A stretch of DNA of 25,293 bases from a virus (IMGVR_UViG_3300045020_000158:64001-89293); one strand, 5' to 3'. Counted from the first letter of the stretch, positions 2,674 to 25,293 are shown. Translations and numbers: made by a program. Notes: generated by a model not told the origin, from the sequence alone.

Positions 2674-3414
2674 TTACCAGACATGGTCTGGAGGTCCGAA
2701 ATCACCTCGGAAATCCAGGTGCCCGGATTTTACACTACAATCGACTGCAGCTCTATAACCATATTTTCTTGCGTCGCTCCAAAAATGGAGGTCTTGCGTT
2801 GAGATGCCGCCCTCAGTTTGTGTTTTAAACCAAGGTTTGCGTAAGCGCTCATCTTTAAACATGGAAAGGCGAAACAAACACATTCCCATGCCAAGTCCAC
2901 AAACTTCAACCAAACCACCGTTAGGATCTGGAAGTTGGGGCATGAAGTTAGGTTCCGGAATGGAAGGAGAACCCCAGCCCTGAAAACATCCGCCCGGTCC
3001 CTTACAAAAATACGAGGCGCTCAACGCGGAATACTCCGGATGCTCCTCCATGCGTTCCAACAGTTTCAACAATCCGTCGGATGGAACCAGATTGTCGTGT
3101 TCGAGCGTGAGAATATATTCCCATTGGCTTAAATCCGGGTTCGCCAAGATTTGTTCGATGGCAGTTGAATAAGCAACTCCAACTTCCATTCCCTGAGCAA
3201 GAATCCTAACAACTCCGTTGTTGGGTGGAAAAGCCAGATTCCAATGAGATAAGGCAACCTTAGCCGGAATCAAATCTGCTGCGGGCAGGATAACTACAAT
3301 TCTCTGCCGGCGCCAGGAACCTCCTTTTAAAAGGCGCGCGCGCGTAGCATTGAGATCTTTATTGTGCTCTCCACAAAAATCATCCTGCACAATCAAAGCC
3401 GGTTTATTCGCCAT
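2674..3414 (-). CDS. GT-A fold glycosyltransferase-like protein, 246 aa
   Basis: EYILTLEHDN (DxD-equivalent), CGLGMGMCLFRLSMF, RKPWF, TQDLHF and AVDCSVKSGHLD follow the pattern of phage GT2-like proteins. Confidence 0.8.
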   Translation of the reverse strand: MANKPALIVQDDFCGEHNKDLNATRARLLKGGSWRRQRIVVILPAADLIPAKVALSHWNLAFPPNNGVVRILAQGMEVGVAYSTAIEQILANPDLSQWEYILTLEHDNLVPSDGLLKLLERMEEHPEYSALSASYFCKGPGGCFQGWGSPSIPEPNFMPQLPDPNGGLVEVCGLGMGMCLFRLSMFKDERLRKPWFKTQTEGGISTQDLHFWSDARKYGYRAAVDCSVKSGHLDFRGDFGPPDHVW

Positions 3415-3433
3415 AGTGACTCACAAATATCAA

Positions 3434-4114
3434 TTATTGAACCCACGCAATCGTTGCGGTGTTGGCCGCCGCAATCAGCGCAAATGCCATGACTCCAGTT
3501 TCATTAGCTGTGCCGGCCGTGCCCGGTGCCATGGTCGGTATAGTTCCTCCTGCGCTCGCGTTATATCCTGCAGCCCAAGCTCCGATGCTACCGTTGGTGC
3601 TGGTCAGGGATGCCGGAATCGTAAAGCCACCCGTACCCGCTACAGGCTGCGTATTGGCCGCAGAAGTCGTATCCGTGAGCGCCAACATATAAACTAAGTC
3701 GCCCGCATTACCAACGCTACCACCCGGTGTTAGTGTTTGCCCCACAGTAGGATTCGTCACCAGTTGACTGATAGCTGCTGCTCGCAGAGCCGGAAGCGTG
3801 TCCTCAATGAGGATAGCGACGTAGTCACCCGTGCCGGTGTAGTTCACCGTAAGAGTATGCGTACCCGACGCAACACTACCCGTGGCAATCGCGCAAACCA
3901 GAGCGGTACCACCCGCCGTTAGCGCGAGAACCGGACCAGAAATGGTCCAGATCGTCCCAGCACTGTCAGTGATCGAGGTAATGCCCGGTGTCGTCGTGAT
4001 GTTGAAAAACAGAAATGCGAACAGGCCATGGAGCGCCGTCACCCCGGTCAATGACGGTCCCGAAGTGCCACTGGTATAGAAAGTCCCGAAGTCAACACTC
4101 TGAACGTAACTCAC
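3434..4114 (-). CDS. Ser/Thr/Gly-rich beta-sandwich virion protein with C-terminal TATIAWVQ tag, 226 aa
   Basis: Likely start is GTG at 4114, overlapping the upstream stop (GTGA). The track's longer start at 4258 lies inside the previous gene. Paralogous to 7322..8056 and 8079..8768. Confidence 0.7.
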   Translation of the reverse strand: MSYVQSVDFGTFYTSGTSGPSLTGVTALHGLFAFLFFNITTTPGITSITDSAGTIWTISGPVLALTAGGTALVCAIATGSVASGTHTLTVNYTGTGDYVAILIEDTLPALRAAAISQLVTNPTVGQTLTPGGSVGNAGDLVYMLALTDTTSAANTQPVAGTGGFTIPASLTSTNGSIGAWAAGYNASAGGTIPTMAPGTAGTANETGVMAFALIAAANTATIAWVQ

Positions 4115-5310
4115 GTGAACTGACCCAGTAGCGTTGTAACGTTGCTCGAATTCGTCGCATACAAATACTTTCCGGCCAAAGACTGGTAGAAAACGCCACC
4201 GTGCAGGCGGAATTGCACGGAGCCATTGGTCCACCAACTGGGGCTTTCGATCGTGCACATTGCTTTGCGTGTGCTGCCGGCATAAGTCGCCGAATCGAGT
4301 ATCTCAATACGTGCCGCTGCGCCGACATTTCCCGAACTCGGACCTGCGAGGTAATACTCACTCTGCACCACATAGCAATTGTTATCAACGCTCCAGTTAG
4401 GATCGGTACCGCTCGTATATTGCACAAATCCTGGTAACGTACAGATCTGATAGCCGTTATAGGCGGAACTGCTGGTCACCAGAATCACATTGTTGCTATA
4501 GGCTCCGATCGTCTGGGCGGTCCCATCCCAGACGCCGGTCCAGAGAATATTACCTGTACCGGCGCCTTGGGCTGCATTGATCTGCACCCATTTGCAGTTG
4601 CAGATTGGAACACCGGTTTTAGGATATGGCGTTGAATTCCAAACCCACTCGGTCGCAGTCCCAACGGGTAGATTGCTGGCCAATCCGGGCGCATTGTTGG
4701 ACAACCATTCCCATTGATTCGAGATGGTTTGATTATCCACCGCATTATAAATATCGGTGTCATTGAATCCACCTCCGCCGGTCTTGTCGCAATACCACCA
4801 AGACAGCTTGACCTGTGGAGTGCCCGAAGTTGAAATCGATGTGTAGTTGCAACCCGATGGAAAATAGACAATCTCGGAAACAAATACCTCGGCCATCTGG
4901 GAAGGTGCCGTCACCACGATGCCGCCCCAGCCGCCTCCAGAGCTCACTGTGCCGATGCGGGAATCATTGGACGTGATCATGCCCTGTCCATATGGAAGTC
5001 CTGAGCCACTCACGCAATATGGATAACCGTTGCCATTCGGGACCCACGTGCCACCGGATACCAAGAAATCCGGTCCATTGGCGACAAGACTACCAGGTGT
5101 CTCATTGGCAAAATTCTTATAGGCGATCAACTGAGGCCCGATTGCACCGAAACTGCTGCCACTGATGGTCATCAGTTGGCCTTCGCCGATTCCTGAAGGT
5201 GCGGACAATGAGAAGCCGGACTGCGGAGTGAACCCGATACCGGAGGCGTAGAGATTGCCGGCAGCTCCTGCGATATGCGCACCCACCATGTAAAGGCTGG
5301 GAACGCTCAA
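4111..5310 (-). CDS. Putative virion appendage / carbohydrate-binding protein, 399 aa
   Basis: N-terminal MSVPSLYMVGAHIAG is shared with the GH5 protein. It is followed by an IPT-like segment (GQLMTISGSSFG) and a Trp/Tyr/Asn-rich beta region. The function is inferred. Confidence 0.6.
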   Translation of the reverse strand: MSVPSLYMVGAHIAGAAGNLYASGIGFTPQSGFSLSAPSGIGEGQLMTISGSSFGAIGPQLIAYKNFANETPGSLVANGPDFLVSGGTWVPNGNGYPYCVSGSGLPYGQGMITSNDSRIGTVSSGGGWGGIVVTAPSQMAEVFVSEIVYFPSGCNYTSISTSGTPQVKLSWWYCDKTGGGGFNDTDIYNAVDNQTISNQWEWLSNNAPGLASNLPVGTATEWVWNSTPYPKTGVPICNCKWVQINAAQGAGTGNILWTGVWDGTAQTIGAYSNNVILVTSSSAYNGYQICTLPGFVQYTSGTDPNWSVDNNCYVVQSEYYLAGPSSGNVGAAARIEILDSATYAGSTRKAMCTIESPSWWTNGSVQFRLHGGVFYQSLAGKYLYATNSSNVTTLLGQFT

Positions 5311-17342: not shown

Positions 17343-18122
17343 TCAGTCGGTAACGTGCTTCCAGACTTTGCGTCTGCGGATGTTGGAAACGAGAACGTTG
17401 GAGATTCCATACTTCTGAGCCAGAAGGACTCCTTGCTCAGTGCTTTTACGAATCTCTCTCACGATTTCCTCGGTGATCTTAGTGCCCATTCCTCTTCTGT
17501 GCGGTCCGCCAGGAGAGTTCTTGGCAATATGATCAACCTGAACATGCGCCCATGATTCCCGATTTTTGATGCTCGTTATGGTCGTGGCAGCAACGCCATA
17601 TGACGCGGCGATTTCCGCATAAGGGCGAGGATCAATGAGAATAGCTTTCGCCTGATTCTCAGTAAGTTTCGCTCTATGCGACATTTCGCCGCGCTGCTCT
17701 GTCCTGCGCCGACCTTTTCTCACCATATCATCGTAATTTTCCCGCAACGTGCCCATCCATAAATGGGCTGGATTCACGCATCGTGGATTATCACAAGAAT
17801 GGCAAATGAACATTCCTTTCGGGATTCTAGATTGCGTGTAGAACGCCCAAGAGAATCGGTGAGCCCGGTGATACATTACACCGGCGACCTCGCCTTGAAA
17901 GACGCCGTAATTATCCTTTTCCACGGCGCCTATCCATTCCCAACACTCGCCCACTTCCTTGTACTGCATCTTGAATCGCTGCTCCGCCGATAGACCCCTC
18001 ATTATGTGATTTTTAGTCGCGAACGGGGAGCCATATCGGCGATTGCGGCGCCAATGCTTGTTGCACATTCCCATGCAACGAGCCGGAAGATCACAACCCT
18101 TACACTGGCAGCTTTCCGCCAT
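17343..18122 (-). CDS. Free-standing HNH homing endonuclease (HNH_3 type) with an N-terminal Cys-rich motif and two C-terminal HTH-like repeats, 259 aa
   Basis: CWEWIGA...YGVF...AHRFSW...CHSCDNPRCVNPAHLWMGTLRENYDDM, then AKLTENQ...YGVA.TTI..IKNRESW.HV and TKITEEI...YGIS.VLV..IRRRKVW.HV. The preferred start is ATG 18122. Confidence 0.9.
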   Translation of the reverse strand: MAESCQCKGCDLPARCMGMCNKHWRRNRRYGSPFATKNHIMRGLSAEQRFKMQYKEVGECWEWIGAVEKDNYGVFQGEVAGVMYHRAHRFSWAFYTQSRIPKGMFICHSCDNPRCVNPAHLWMGTLRENYDDMVRKGRRRTEQRGEMSHRAKLTENQAKAILIDPRPYAEIAASYGVAATTITSIKNRESWAHVQVDHIAKNSPGGPHRRGMGTKITEEIVREIRKSTEQGVLLAQKYGISNVLVSNIRRRKVWKHVTD

Positions 18123-18123
18123 A

Positions 18124-18190
18124 CCAACACCAATCAGGTAGCTATCTACTCTCGGCCGAGAGAAGCATAGTTTACGCTGATTGGTGTTGG
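18124..18190 (-). promoter_or_regulatory. Long hairpin covering the HNH ribosome-binding region
   Basis: Perfect 14-bp inverted repeat CCAACACCAATCAG (18124-18137 and 18177-18190) with further inner pairing (CTAT/ATAG, CTCTCG/CGAGAG). It ends 1 nt before the ATG. Confidence 0.8.
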
Positions 18191-18209
18191 ATGAGCAACG
18201 ATTTGGCAC

Positions 18210-18238
18210 AGTATATCAGCCGAAGATGCGAATACCAA
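18210..18238 (-). promoter_or_regulatory. Candidate sigma70-type promoter for the HNH gene
   Basis: TTGGTA (18238-18233), a 17-nt spacer, then TATACT (18215-18210), with an extended -10 TG supplied by the coat stop codon. Confidence 0.5.
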
Positions 18239-20101
18239 GTGAACGATAAAGGCTTGCAGGCCCGTAAAGTACATCGCCATTTAATGTTAACCAAACTCAT
18301 GTTTGGTCAGCCTTGCGGCTGCTCTGGATTTCGCCAGAGATCAGACTATATCTTGGTCCTTTCGGACCGCTCCCGTTTCGGCCTCGTGGCCTACTCTCTT
18401 GCGAGATAGTCGTTGAAGGTTTCTGCATCGCTGCAGACTTCCCTGCTGATTGTCCAATCCTAGGGATTGTCACCCTCTCGGGTACCCTAGGCTCTAAGGA
18501 GTTTCCAGCAATTAGAGAGCTTTAAACTCGGCTTAATGCAACTTTAACCGAGTCGGTTCTGAGTCGTTATTGATGGTAAATTGCGTCACCATCCGGATCG
18601 ACATCCCCACATCCTCGTCGTCATAAGCCCGCGCCGCAAACTCCACGCCCCGAGGCAGTGGCAGATCCGCGAAGGCCAACGCAAACGCGTACTTGTGGAA
18701 CACCAACCCCTGCGGACTCGCCGTGCTGGCGTACGCCGTTCCACCATTGACCGTAATAGTCGTACCGGTGCCGGTCGGGGCTGCCGTGCAGTTCTGGAAC
18801 TGGCCGGCGCTGATGATCGCGTCGCCAATCGTGAGCTGCAGGTTGCCCGAGCTGTCACTGGTATACACACCGGTCAGCGGGTTGAACGTACCGTTCGTCA
18901 AACTCGCCGGTCCGTAGTAGATGCCCGTCGTCGCGGCACCGTTCGGGGGAGTGATAAAGCCACCGGGCGGCAGAATCACGAACTGCTTCAGCGTGCGTCC
19001 ATACTGCTGACGGCTTTGTGGGTTCACCGGATAGATTCCGCTGAACTGGATCACATCGCCGACCTTAACCACACCGGTTGAGCCGGTCCAACCGGTCGTC
19101 AGGATCGTGCCGCTGGCCGCCCACCCGCTGGTGAGGAGTGCCGTACCGGTCGGTGTCGCAGACACCGTGGGCGTACCGCCCTGAACACCGGTCGTGAACG
19201 ACATGATGTTCTGATCCTCCCACCAGTCCAATCCGGCGAACTCCTTCGCCACCATGCCGCGCTCGTTGAACTCCGAGATGCGCGCCTGGGGATTGAACAG
19301 GCCCTTGATGGCATCCGTTGCCGCTGACATGCTGATCGGGTCCAGCACGCAGTTTTTCTCGCCTTCGGCCGGGCAGGCCTCGGACGCCAGCACCGCACGT
19401 GCATCGGAGAAAATCTTGTAGCTGGCAGGCTGGATGCCCGCGGTGCCCAAGGAATTCGCCGTGTTGAGCGTGCAGAACTGTGCAGTGTCGGAATCAACGC
19501 GGTTCGCCACGGTCGCGACCTGGGGTTTCAGAATGCGCTGCTTGAACATGTCCATGGACAGCGCCAGGTCCTGCGTCGTGAACTGCACATCGACGTGGAA
19601 CTGGTAGTTGAGCACCACCGGGACGTACTGCTCGAACGTGTCTTCCACGTTCAGAGGCGGACCATACGTACCGATGTAGCGGGGCGGACGCCGGACGTTA
19701 ACTGTGTTCGAGGTGTTCAGTCAGCTCATGCTGACCCGTCTTGCGACTGCTGTAAGTTTCCCTACAGTCCAGATCATATCTTGCCTCTTTCGAGGCCCCA
19801 CCGTTTCGAGCCCGTTGACTCTACTTCCTTTCGGAATGATCGTTGAGCGTTCCGTCTTGCGACGGCTTCGTTGCTGATTACCCAATCCTGACGATTGTCA
19901 CCTTGCGGTACGTCAGGCTCTAAGGGCGTTCCAGGCAGTTAGATGGATTTTGAATCGGCCGATTCAACCGATTTTGGCGCCGGTCTGGGCGAACTCGTTA
20001 CTGTATTGGCGGTCTACACGATTTGCGATAACGAGTTCGTTTTCAAGCACCACTAACGCCTCGTTAGTGATGTATGAAATTGTCAGAAGTTGTTGAACCA
20101 A
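18216..20101 (-). CDS. Major capsid protein (P22 gp5-like) in three exons: 20101-19967, 19708-18547, 18277-18216; 452 aa after splicing
   Basis: TTG start 6 nt after TAGGAG. Exon 1 reads MVQQLLTISYITNEALVVLENELVIANRVDRQYSNEFAQTGAKIG. The joins read AKIG|NTVNVRRP and EPTR-C-DVLYGPASLYRSLGIRIFG*, restoring both conserved ends of the P22-type coat. Total length is 1359 nt, in frame. Confidence 0.92.
18278..18546 (-). ncRNA. Group I self-splicing intron 2 (269 nt, no ORF; P7.1/P7.2 present, IA-like)
   Basis: The exon ends in U and the intron ends in G. P1 is ACUCGGU/GCCGAGU with a U-G at the splice site. P3 is GCUCUC/GGGAGC and P7 is GACUA/UAGUC. Core elements: AAUUGCUGGAAAC, AAUCAGCAG, UCAACGACUA, AAGAUAUAGUCU. 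The 5' loop UAAAGU is complementary to exon 3 ACUUUA (P10). Confidence 0.93.
19709..19966 (-). ncRNA. Group I self-splicing intron 1 (258 nt, no ORF; P7.1/P7.2 present, IA-like)
   Basis: The exon ends in U and the intron ends in G. P1 is AAUCGGU/GCCGAUU, P3 is UCCAUC/GGUGGG and P7 is GAUCA/UGAUC. Core elements: AACUGCCUGGAAC, AAUCAGCAAC, UCAACGAUCA, AAGAUAUGAUCU. Multiple GNRA-capped stems. Confidence 0.93.
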
Positions 20102-20115
20102 GTAAAGCTCCTAAG

Positions 20116-20638
20116 TTAGATGTTAACTAAGTGAGCTGAATGATTTACGTGGCCGTTTAGGATCAAAGAAATCAAAGGACGGCTAACACCAAACCAGTCA
20201 GCTATCTGCTGTTGAGTGCAGCCAGAAGCGCGAAGATCACAGATTCTCTCGCCGTCCGTAGCGTTGAGTTTCTGCCATCTCGTGCCTTGACGCCATGCAT
20301 GGCGTCCCTTAGATACCATATCTCGGGAGTTATCCATTGCCGTACCGAGGAACAAATGGTCAGGATTAATGCAACGAGGAACATCGCATTTGTGTAAAAC
20401 CATTTTGTCAGAGGGAAGATCGCCATTTGCAAGAACCCATGCAACACGATGGGCATATCTCATATATTGCCCCTTGCTGAGTAGGATTTGACCATATCCC
20501 CTATCATTAACCGTTCCATTCCAAATAATGCACCCGTTTTCATTAGGGGGGGCCGTATTTGGTATGAAAGCGCTTAATGCAACGATCTGGAATATCCGAC
20601 CGCTTAAGAATGCGGGCGAATCGATTGCGATTAGTCAC
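20116..20638 (-). CDS. Free-standing HNH homing endonuclease split by a +1 frameshift at CCC-TAA (20552-20543); about 173 aa if read through
   Basis: GTG at 20638, 8 nt after GGAG, reads MTNRNRF...KRFHTKYGPP*. The +1 frame continues NENGCIIWNG...GYGQI...YAHRVAW...VLHKCDVPRCINPDHLFLGTAMDNSRDM plus a C-terminal HTH. The track ORF 20116..20463 lacks the N-terminal part of the domain. Confidence 0.85.
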
Positions 20639-20679: not shown

Positions 20680-21894
20680 CTACCGCCGCTTACTCCGCGC
20701 CTTCTCCCTCTCATAAGCCCGCAGCTGTTTGAAATCCATCTTCGACGGATCTGTCACCACGGTCCCGGAGCCTTGCGCAGAAATCGGCGTGATCGGTGGA
20801 GGCGCTCCACCACGCTCGGGTGCTTTCGGTGCAGGAGCCGGCGGCACGACTGCGACAGGCGCAGGCGCAACCGCTGGAGCTGCGGGAGCCGGCGGCGGGA
20901 TCGGCGTGGGAGCCGGGGTAACCGCTGCAGGCTTCTCGAAAGTCAATTCGAGCTTGCCTATCTCGGCTAAAGCCTTGACAGGCGAGAGTTGTCGGATCTT
21001 GTCCGTGAAATCTGGGTGATTCGCCATGTGATAGGTGATATCAGCCCCGTAATCGCTCTCGGTGATGAACTGGAGCACCGCATCAGGAACCAAAACATCG
21101 GTCGCACCCACAACTTCCAGGAAATCGGGGTATTTGATCTGAGCTTTTTCAAGTCGGGCCTTGAATTTGGCTTCGACTTCGGCACGCTCCGCTGCCTGTT
21201 TTTCTTGCGCGATTTTGGCGCGCTCCTGCTCAGCCGCGTGCGTGGCTTTCGCATCTGCAAACTGGTCTTTCGCGTCGATGAATTTACTCCAATCGACGAC
21301 GCCCTCTGGGGAGGTGAATTCCTTGATGTCGGGCGCTTTCGGCGGTTCGGGCGCAGCCGGCGCGGCCAGTGCAGGTTTCTGAGCCTTCGCAGCCTGCAAT
21401 TCGCGCTCGAGCTCCGCGGCGCGGGCCTCAGCCAGCCGGGCACGCTCGAATTGGTTCTTTGCGAACGCCTCAGCGTCCTTAGCTTCTTCTTCCGCCGTCT
21501 TCCGCAGCGCCTCTTCCTGCTTCGCGATCTTATGCCGCTTGCCCACCAGGCGCCGCACGCGCTCCGTCTCATCCGGCGCGGTCAGAATCCACTCTTTGTC
21601 GGATTCGGAGATGCCGTGGTAGGGGTCCGGCAGGTCATCGGGGTCAACCAGAGGGGCTGGCGGCGCAACGGCCGCGGGAGCCTCTGGCGCGGGCGCAGGC
21701 GGTACTTCCGGCGGTGTGCCGGCAGTCGCGTCGGACTGCACGGGAGGCGCTGGCGGCGGCGCTACAACCACCACAGTCTCGACCGGCGTTGCGCCCGGTA
21801 GTGACTTATCGCCCTTCACGTGGTTTTTGACCTCGGTGACGGCGCCGGTTTCAATGAAATCTTGCAACCCAGTCGAAGTCACAACCTTACCCAT
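20680..21894 (-). CDS. Capsid scaffolding protein, about 404 aa
   Basis: Sits between portal and coat. Pro/Ala-rich linkers flank an E/K/A/R-rich coiled coil, and there is a short basic C-terminal helix (DPSKMDFKQLRAYEREKARSKRR). ATG 21894 is preferred over the track's 21927. Confidence 0.85.
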   Translation of the reverse strand: MGKVVTSTGLQDFIETGAVTEVKNHVKGDKSLPGATPVETVVVVAPPPAPPVQSDATAGTPPEVPPAPAPEAPAAVAPPAPLVDPDDLPDPYHGISESDKEWILTAPDETERVRRLVGKRHKIAKQEEALRKTAEEEAKDAEAFAKNQFERARLAEARAAELERELQAAKAQKPALAAPAAPEPPKAPDIKEFTSPEGVVDWSKFIDAKDQFADAKATHAAEQERAKIAQEKQAAERAEVEAKFKARLEKAQIKYPDFLEVVGATDVLVPDAVLQFITESDYGADITYHMANHPDFTDKIRQLSPVKALAEIGKLELTFEKPAAVTPAPTPIPPPAPAAPAVAPAPVAVVPPAPAPKAPERGGAPPPITPISAQGSGTVVTDPSKMDFKQLRAYEREKARSKRR

Positions 21895-22072
21895 GGACGC
21901 TATCTCGCGGCATGTCGGCCAATGCACGTCCTACGCATCGTTGACACGGACCGTCACCATTGGCTTTTGCCACCTCACCGAACGTCACACCAATGCCGAG
22001 ATATTTCTTGATCGTCACGATGAAACGACGACCAAGATTCATGGAAAACCGATTCCCATTAGACAATTTCAT
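21887..22072 (-). CDS. Small hypothetical protein, 61 aa
   Basis: Fills the gap and overlaps the scaffold start. No recognisable motif. Confidence 0.35.
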   Translation of the reverse strand: MKLSNGNRFSMNLGRRFIVTIKKYLGIGVTFGEVAKANGDGPCQRCVGRALADMPRDSVHG

Positions 22073-25060: not shown

Positions 25061-25233
25061 TTAGGTGCGCAACCTTCGCGATACTTCCATTCGATTGATT
25101 CGCGTACGTGCTTGCAGCTTCGGCATTCGATCGTACCGTCGTGATTCAGGAAAAAAAGCTGGCTGCCGCAGGTACATTCGAAGACCCACTCCGGGCGCCT
25201 GATCTGGAAATCATGCTCCACTACGTCGCCCAA
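25057..25233 (-). CDS. Small Cys-rich protein, 58 aa (below the ORF-track cutoff)
   Basis: TTG after GGGAGA. MGDVVEHDFQIRRPEWVFECTCGSQLFFLNHDGTIECRSCKHVRESIEWKYREGCAPK. ATGA overlap with the next gene. Confidence 0.65.
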   Translation of the reverse strand: MGDVVEHDFQIRRPEWVFECTCGSQLFFLNHDGTIECRSCKHVRESIEWKYREGCAPK

Positions 25234-25244
25234 AGAGGTCTCCC

Positions 25245-25274
25245 AAATGAAAAGGCCAACCCGAAGGCTGGCCT
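25245..25274 (-). terminator. Intrinsic terminator
   Basis: 9-bp stem AGGCCAGCC-TTCG-GGTTGGCCT followed by TTTCATTT. Confidence 0.8.
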
Positions 25275-25293
25275 TGTGAATAATCGCCCGATA

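Follow-up and report, generated by a model that had tools for sequence, protein, structure and literature searches.

The persistence of group I introns without an open reading frame (ORF), and the convergence of introns and homing endonucleases on shared targets, are long-standing problems that have so far been addressed in only a few cultured phages. Collaborative homing has been described for the psbA intron of cyanophage S-PM2 and the free-standing endonuclease F-CphI (PMC3984707; PMC6083498), and an arrangement in T3 and T7-like phages has also been cited as collaborative homing (PMC10448857). In trans homing, the nrdB intron of T4 is moved by the adjacent free-standing HNH endonuclease MobE via co-conversion, without a cut at the insertion site (PMC2790892). 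It has also been described that homing endonuclease genes bracket essential genes or operons of phages in so-called HEG-islands, among them capsid modules that contain spliced genes, and that the nucleases mark the boundaries of genetic exchange; such layouts have been proposed to originate in endonuclease turnover, with the arrival of a new free-standing gene and the elimination of the intronic one (PMC10448857). Group I introns in capsid genes are known from mycobacteriophage LittleE and lactococcal phage Tuc2009 (PMC3706429). In the present study, we analyzed a window of 25,293 nucleotides (nt), that is, the whole stretch of DNA IMGVR_UViG_3300045020_000158:64001-89293, which comes from an uncultured phage genome of ~89 kb. 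The coat gene in this window is interrupted by two ORF-less group I introns and flanked by two free-standing HNH genes. Unless a locus is named, coordinates refer to this window.

We are inclined, if only slightly, to think that this coat gene lies in a 'homing-endonuclease island'. That is, two HNH_3 cassettes in the spacers flanking the gene, and two ORF-less introns at its ends, would belong to a system that spreads by homing with co-conversion. The nuclease and the intron converge on the same conserved stretch, as they do in the S-PM2 system. However, S-PM2 has one intron/nuclease pair, whereas two pairs lie on one gene here; the nucleases here are of the HNH_3 type, whereas F-CphI is EndoVII-like; and relatives of the present phage show each partner alone, cleavage at the insertion site being a candidate event in our case. 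The likeness to T4 is that a free-standing HNH gene adjoins an intron that is unable to move alone, and this arrangement fits the variable ends of the conversion tracts described below. The T4 nrdB intron, however, has a defunct endonuclease ORF, which both introns of the window lack, and trans homing in T4 has been proven experimentally, whereas our analysis is one of sequence.

The locus resembles the HEG-islands in that an essential gene is flanked on both sides and endonuclease genes mark the boundaries of exchange. The published islands involve T5orf172 and IPA-HNH genes of ICP1-like and other cultured phages (PMC10448857), whereas the phages studied here are uncultured and metagenome-assembled. 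In addition, ORF-less introns are also found at both boundaries here, with exchange breakpoints at or close to their sites. As in LittleE and Tuc2009, an intron, predicted to be self-splicing in our case, resides in a very highly expressed major capsid gene. Those phages have single introns, that of LittleE with its own endonuclease gene, whereas the present gene has two ORF-less introns and its family has at least five insertion sites.

What is new is the doubled layout of ORF-less introns and free-standing HNH genes on one coat gene, together with breakpoints at or near the intron sites and a large natural series of intermediate states. A preliminary description of this DNA had supposed that the symmetric arrangement was undescribed. 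This holds for the doubled layout, but not for the bracketing of essential genes, which has already been described as HEG-islands (PMC10448857). Because the concept is already published, the gain is a well-resolved new case and not a new principle. The coat-gene family provides a natural comparative series, in which free-standing and intron-encoded HNH genes occur at the same places and mosaics end at or near intron sites. It indicates that, in uncultured metagenome-assembled phages, selfish nucleases and introns define the limits of exchange inside one essential gene.

The coat gene and its two introns

All elements of the locus lie on the minus strand, in the order portal, scaffold, HNH-1, coat exon 1, intron 1, exon 2, intron 2, exon 3, HNH-2 and the remaining structural module. 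The insertion sites are named here by their positions in the coat coding sequence: A, nt 97/98; B, 135/136; D', 1290/1291; and D, 1297/1298. Exon 1 (19967-20101) comprises 45 codons and begins with a TTG start codon after GGAG. It is followed by intron 1 (19709-19966, 258 nt) at site B and by exon 2 (18547-19708), whose 1162 nt make up 86% of the coding sequence and match Pfam P22_CoatProtein (80.9 bits). Intron 2 (18278-18546, 269 nt) occupies site D. Exon 3 (18216-18277) has 62 nt including the TGA stop codon, and encodes the conserved C-terminus (C)DVLYGPASLYRSLGIRIFG. The intron sites fall at the borders of two short end segments of the coat gene, of 135 nt at its 5' end and 62 nt at its 3' end.

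Splicing yields a P22-type coat protein of 452 amino acids (aa). Two uninterrupted coat proteins, those of MW202520 and of Xanthomonas phage PBR31 (52% identity over exon 2), align to it with no gap at either junction, and so the spliced junctions given in the preliminary description were exact. The junction of exons 1 and 2, GAKIG/NTVNVR, is colinear with the uninterrupted homologues. That is, removal of the introns restores a colinear, conserved coat protein, which was also aligned to ~90 unique relatives.

As the criterion for a group I intron, we used the gathering score of Rfam RF00028, which is 50 bits. Intron 2 exceeded this score (70 bits). Intron 1 gave 30.7 bits (E=3e-5), which is below it, and could be aligned over its full length with intron 2 and two introns from relatives. 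In this four-member alignment, RNAalifold predicted 77 pairs, 35 of which showed compensatory changes that keep the pair. The ...TCGGT at the end of each 5' exon pairs with GCCGA(T/G)T inside the intron, with a U.G pair at the P1 splice site. The last base is G in both introns, which end in ...CTCG and ...AATG. No ORF was present in either of them, in agreement with the earlier statement that neither encodes a nuclease. From these features, introns 1 and 2 are ORF-less group I introns of one family, and they are predicted to be self-splicing.

The flanking HNH genes

HNH-1 lies upstream of the coat gene and HNH-2 downstream of it. The nuclease frame of HNH-1 (20116-20544, minus strand) contains the HNH_3 domain and one C-terminal helix-turn-helix repeat. 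HNH-2 (17343-18122, minus strand) is an intact free-standing HNH_3 gene with an ATG at 18122, a reading frame of 259 aa and two C-terminal helix-turn-helix repeats. The distance between the end of HNH-1 and the intron 1 site (20116 to 19967) is exactly 149 nt, and that between the intron 2 site and the start of HNH-2 (18277 to 18122) is exactly 155 nt, as previously given.

The scores against Pfam HNH_3 were 55 bits for HNH-1 and 28 bits for HNH-2, and both proteins also match HNH endonuclease families of PHROG. The two are 34% identical to each other and keep the H...N-P-x-H-L...N motif in front of their helix-turn-helix repeats, the catalytic motifs being H-K-C-D...C-I-N-P-D-H-L...D-N and H-S-C-D...C-V-N-P-A-H-L...E-N. 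A sequence search of the PDB with HNH-2 gave no match. Orthologues of HNH-2 with 51-63% identity are located at the same intergenic position in five relatives (L009, L022, L081, L083 and L148; L-numbers denote loci of the survey described below). Among otherwise syntenic relatives, both HNH genes are sporadic insertions at intergenic sites, as is expected of free-standing homing endonuclease genes. These two introns are the only ones in the entire genome of 89 kb, which gives four HNH_3-like matches; the adjacency of introns and HNH genes is therefore not due to chance.

Mosaic structure of the coat gene

Relatives were collected by scans with coat exon 2, which yielded 80 IMG/VR loci and 80 metagenome loci with 67-98% identity (one outlier, 32%). 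Together with the window, the set comprised 161 sequences, or ~119 distinct lineages, all of them metagenome assemblies; the contigs of the relatives were mostly ~37-42 kb or shorter. Single-protein scans of IMG/VR added 5 loci with HNH-2 and 7 with HNH-1. Since these extra loci were few, the survey relied on the coat-gene matches.

The window was compared with L009, which is 98% identical to it over the coat segment encoded by exon 2 and whose sequence was also recovered as L010, from an independent data set. The nucleotide identity was 85% for the whole scaffold gene and 90% for its last 400 nt. It was 79% in exon 1, 93.5% in exon 2 and 61% in exon 3, and then 62% in HNH-2 and 71% in the downstream gene. 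A likelihood scan with two breakpoints placed them at nt 101-145 (best at 102 or 135) and at nt 1281-1292 of the coat gene, and the log-likelihood gain of this model over a uniform model was ~38. The breakpoints are located at, or within ~5-16 nt of, the intron sites 135/136 and 1297/1298. These results suggest that HNH-1, exon 1 and intron 1 on one side, and intron 2, exon 3 and HNH-2 on the other, behave as two blocks whose ancestry is other than that of exon 2.

Replaced ends were also found in other pairs that differ in an HNH gene. L012, which has HNH-1, and L013, which does not, differ by 23 mismatches in nt 1-72 and then by none up to nt 188. L136 (HNH gene present) and L138 (absent) are 98.5% identical in the core, and their mismatches become dense from nt 1236 onward. 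The breakpoints in these comparisons are sharp. In nearest-neighbour pairs, the median excess divergence in the last 59 nt was 13.6 points with a downstream HNH gene versus -0.3 without it (Mann-Whitney p=1.7e-8), and the corresponding test at the 5' end gave p=9e-4. L143, which has a 3' intron and no HNH gene, showed no excess 3' divergence. The conversion tracts reach ~40-130 nt into the coat gene. Both introns of the window lie inside this zone and would therefore be carried along.

The earlier proposal that homing could co-convert coat sequence agrees with these results, since HNH-bearing lineages have replaced coat-gene ends. From these patterns, the HNH genes act like free-standing homing cassettes that are, or recently were, active and would co-convert the exon and intron next to them. 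When homing works at the DNA level, through double-strand-break repair, replaced flanks are its signature, and reverse splicing is not expected to produce them. Such flanks also bear on the question of whether the HNH proteins are homing endonucleases at all. HNH genes occur beside terminase and portal genes in cos phages, and the position of the present genes in the head-morphogenesis operon might suggest packaging-associated proteins or ordinary regulators. We consider this extremely improbable. The HNH genes are absent from ~90% of the relatives that have the same head genes, their HNH_3 products have helix-turn-helix tails like those of phage homing endonucleases, and their presence predicts replaced flanks.

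Several traits of HEG-islands were found in this comparison. The cargo is conserved above its flanks, as exon 2 is 93.5% identical to that of L009 and the flanks 61-85%. The endonuclease content is unstable; that is, the HNH-2 alleles share 62% identity between phages that are 98% identical over the coat segment encoded by exon 2. Different HNH types also occupy the same position among relatives.

Distribution of introns and HNH genes among relatives

Most of the surveyed loci had an uninterrupted coat gene and no HNH gene, and each of the four elements also occurred alone. At the 3' end, where 111 lineages were assessable, the downstream HNH gene was present in 12 and a 3' intron in 3 (both, 2; HNH only, 10; intron only, 1; neither, 98; Fisher p=0.030). 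At the 5' end, 3 of the 88 assessable lineages had the upstream HNH gene and 5 had a 5' intron (both, 2; HNH only, 1; intron only, 3; neither, 82; Fisher p=0.0077). Co-occurrence is thus weakly enriched. The association of introns with HNH genes is present but loose, and the exact pairs of the window rest on very few cases.

The preliminary description had linked each intron with its neighbouring HNH gene. Co-occurrence is enriched at both ends but is by no means the rule, and the closest relatives depart from such a link; in part, they present the lack of correlation between intron and HNH gene that the description had named as grounds for refutation. L009/L010 have HNH-2 without intron 2, and they have no HNH-1; their 5' intron, of the same family as that of the window, is located at site A, 38 nt upstream of site B. 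L017 has introns at sites A and B, and HNH-1 is absent. In L050, a site-A intron of another family is present, and HNH-1 is reduced to a C-terminal remnant. The coat gene of L012 is free of introns and adjoins an intact HNH-1. Downstream of the coat gene, the HNH-2 orthologues of L009, L022, L081 and L148 are not accompanied by a 3' intron, and six more lineages have distant HNH_3 genes (33-36% identity) at the HNH-2 position, again with no intron. L083 combines HNH-2 with an intron at site D', 7 nt upstream of D, and L143/L179 have a D' intron and no HNH gene.

These distributions are informative as to the strict form of collaborative homing. In a doubled version of it, each HNH would cleave the intron-less coat allele exactly at the site of the neighbouring intron, and the intron would protect its host genome. 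The layout of the window suits such a system, with both introns ORF-less and both HNH genes ~150 nt away. The inner boundaries of the divergent blocks between the window and L009 also lie at or within ~5-16 nt of both intron sites. In addition, two unrelated intron families are found 7 nt apart, at D and D', in the HNH-2-bearing window and L083, and site A holds three intron families, as would be expected of a nuclease target.

However, the HNH-2 orthologues of L009, L022, L081 and L148 occur without a 3' intron, and L081 keeps an intact ACTCGGT/GCGA site despite its orthologue. L012 has no intron beside its intact HNH-1, and its tract stops at nt 60-79. The site-B intron of L017 is present without HNH-1, and HNH-1 of the window itself is frameshifted. 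We therefore regard strict doubled collaborative homing as doubtful. It is similarly questionable that both intron sites are true cleavage sites of the neighbouring HNHs and that cassettes of HNH gene, exon and intron jointly make exon 2 the unit of exchange.

The role of the intron as protector of its own genome, which had been assumed in the preliminary description, did not find support. HNH-bearing lineages without an intron exist (L012 and ten lineages downstream), and this means that the intron is not needed for self-immunity in those genomes. In the 3' alignment of ~80 loci, we looked for site-D polymorphisms that might confer immunity on genomes with HNH-2 and no intron; none was diagnostic, and the differences were scattered and synonymous.

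Other introns of the coat-gene family

The coat-gene family has at least five insertion sites and three intron families. Site A is occupied by three different families, and unrelated families are present at D in the window and at D' in L083, 7 nt apart, in two HNH-2-bearing lineages. In the first family, which includes the introns of the window, P1 covaries with the exon context: the 5' exon reads ...ATCGGU at site B, ...CUCGGU at site D, and ...GUCAGU at site A in L009. This covariation indicates that one intron family has been retargeted to three sites with TC(G/A)GU in common. The three sites (19967-19971 and 18547-18551 of the window, and L009:3698-3702) end in TC(G/A)GT, matching the guide GCCGA/GCTGA.

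The coat gene of L017 (L017:2250-4651) is a single gene with a group I intron at each of three sites (A, B and D) and with an apparent 1-nt frameshift in exon 2. Its site-D intron is a homologue of window intron 2 and carries an internal HNH ORF; the contig ends inside this intron. A second intron family is represented by a 694-nt intron at site A of L031 (L031:3269-3962; L075 has the same sequence), which encodes a 179-aa HNH/EndoVII-like protein. This protein matches HNH and endonuclease VII families of PHROG and has no Pfam hit.

The third family consists of small insertions of 200-230 nt (L050:3761-3962, L083:5159-5378, and L143 at the D' site). The coat frame is restored exactly in them, and they have U and G as the splice-site bases and a GATAGTCTGA core. 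A fifth site was found in L002 (MW202674.1), in which two annotated 'P22 coat protein' coding sequences (2866-4381) represent one gene with an insertion of ~217 nt after ...TQFHVD. Neither the third family (L050, L083, L143) nor the MW202674 insertion was recognised by Rfam at E<=0.001, the third family giving no RF00028 hit, and their status as introns is judged only from the exact frame restoration, the U/G splice-site bases and the core motifs.

Close relatives of the window's intron, which have an exact 26-nt core in common with it, are present in seven other contigs (L181, L183/L184/L187, L185/L186 and L189). There, they interrupt major capsid genes that belong to unrelated families (Pfam Phage_capsid_2 and SU10_MCP), and L187 has a possible second intron 43 codons downstream. 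The intron lineage of the window thus seems to recur in capsid genes.

The diversity of these introns raises the question of whether the introns and the HNH genes are independent selfish elements that merely share a conserved gene. The introns would then have spread by their own intronic HNH, now lost, or by reverse splicing, the HNH genes would home separately, and the adjacency would have no functional meaning. Consistent with this, the site-D intron of L017 and the site-A intron of L031/L075 carry HNH/EndoVII-like ORFs of a family other than HNH_3, and members of one intron family are found at A, B and D alike, all TC(G/A)GT sites, with P1 covarying. A short guide match could explain ectopic spread of the intron within the coat gene. 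The relatives of the intron in unrelated capsid genes have no HNH_3 detected nearby by a regex scan, and turnover of endonuclease genes has been proposed as the origin of such layouts (PMC10448857). We nevertheless think independence unlikely. Introns and HNH genes co-occur above expectation, and the divergent blocks of the window hold an HNH gene, an exon and an intron together, with one boundary at the intron. Furthermore, the flanks have been replaced, whereas reverse splicing would leave the exon flanks as they were.

A related possibility is that the introns homed in the classical manner and then lost their ORFs. This is a live alternative, as the homologue of intron 2 in L017 carries its own HNH ORF. 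The intron-encoded HNHs that relatives have at these sites also fit endonuclease turnover as previously proposed (PMC10448857).

In some of the present phages a target site has a free-standing HNH gene beside it, and in others an intron-encoded HNH is found at that site; in this respect the family is like T3 and phage PhiI. In the work of Bonocora and Shub in 2009, the free-standing HNH of T3 gene 5.3 and the intronic HNH I-TslI of PhiI reportedly cut the same site of the DNA polymerase gene. Because the intronic HNHs of L017 and L031 belong to a family other than that of the free-standing HNH_3 proteins, they are not the same nuclease moved into an intron, which sets the family apart from T3 and PhiI.

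Proposed course of homing

Under the island reading that we favor, homing would proceed as follows. In a mixed infection, the HNH would nick or cut the coat-gene end of a phage without the cassette. Repair would then use the donor as template, from the break across the HNH gene, and in this way co-convert the adjacent exon and any intron in it; the mosaics show such co-conversion. The ORF-less introns would thereby be mobilised in trans. Each intron interrupts a highly conserved stretch, which is a plausible nuclease target. The outcome would be two blocks, one of HNH-1, exon 1 and intron 1 and the other of intron 2, exon 3 and HNH-2, between which exon 2 would be exchangeable. This would be collaborative homing if the insertion site itself is cut, and trans homing if the cut falls merely within co-conversion distance; the data fit either. 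The boundaries between the window and L009 fit a cut at the intron sites, and those of other pairs are found elsewhere.

If both intron sites are indeed cleavage sites of the neighbouring HNHs, which we hold to be questionable, the two cassettes together would make exon 2, that is, 86% of an essential structural gene, a unit of exchange between phages. The coat-gene family would then also preserve, in one gene and in natural populations, nearly every stage in the evolution of mobile introns: a nuclease alone, an ORF-less intron alone, an intron with a neighbouring nuclease, an intron with an internal nuclease gene, and a decayed nuclease gene. The retargeting of one intron family to three sites via changes in the guide sequence would be a further stage.

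Several observations weigh against the island reading. HNH-1 is split by a frameshift. An ORF with a GTG start at 20638 and a good ribosome-binding site (GGAG) stops after 31 codons at a TAA (20545-20543; the frame spans 20543-20638, minus strand), and the nuclease frame (20544-20116) lies +1 relative to this leader ORF, across a run of seven C (C7) at 20546-20552. The run reads GGC CCC CCC TAA, and a +1 shift leads to CCT AAT GAA. Up to its stop, the leader is similar to the N-terminal part of HNH-1 homologues that are intact. When read through the shift, HNH-1 shares 52% identity with the intact copy that L012 has at this position. The frame change could be a homopolymer sequencing error, a real frameshift in a pseudogene, or a programmed +1 recoding at a shift-prone Pro-stop site that throttles expression of the nuclease. 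An exact-pattern scan for the HNH-1 N-terminal region, which sought a copy with C6 instead of C7, gave no match. Because of the frameshift, the HNH-1 cassette may be inactive or weakly expressed, and the first intron/nuclease pair may be defunct.

The other points concern the distribution and the mosaics. Many genomes have an HNH gene without an intron (ten lineages downstream), some have an intron without an HNH gene, and the counts of co-occurrence are small. No HNH_3 motif was found by the regex scan at the seven capsid-gene intron loci, a result that holds only for HNH_3, since the scan also misses known intronic HNHs. The nearest-neighbour pairs are non-independent, and their p-values are indicative only. 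The 3' breakpoints vary between pairs (about 1235, 1242-1258 and 1281-1292) and only bound a possible cut, and the tract associated with HNH-1 in L012 ends at nt 60-79, short of both site A (97/98) and site B (135/136). Chimeric joins made during assembly within the conserved exon 2 might look like mosaics, also in the window, but L009 and L010 are the same sequence in two independent data sets.

Genome context

The 89-kb record (G000:C1) has two adjoining weak HNH_3-like ORFs (21.5 and 13 bits) at G000:C1:43069-44336, outside the window, and no intron was detected near them. The record was suspected of being a concatemer or chimera, since the contigs of relatives are mostly shorter. A self-comparison gave a terminal repeat of 224 nt only and no internal duplication, and this suspicion was rejected. 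The direct terminal repeat (224/225 nt, 99.6% identity) is located at G000:C1:1-224 and 89069-89293, the latter being 25069-25293 of the window. The record is classed as linear without end repeats despite this repeat, and the genome is probably complete.

Upstream of HNH-1, the P22-type portal gene (24392-22251, minus strand) was identified by a Pfam score of 471 bits. The scaffolding protein gene (20680-21927, minus strand) is an ORF with a weak match to Pfam Phage-scaffold (22.9 bits; cut-off, 25), and it is located between the portal and coat genes, as in Xanthomonas phage PBR31.

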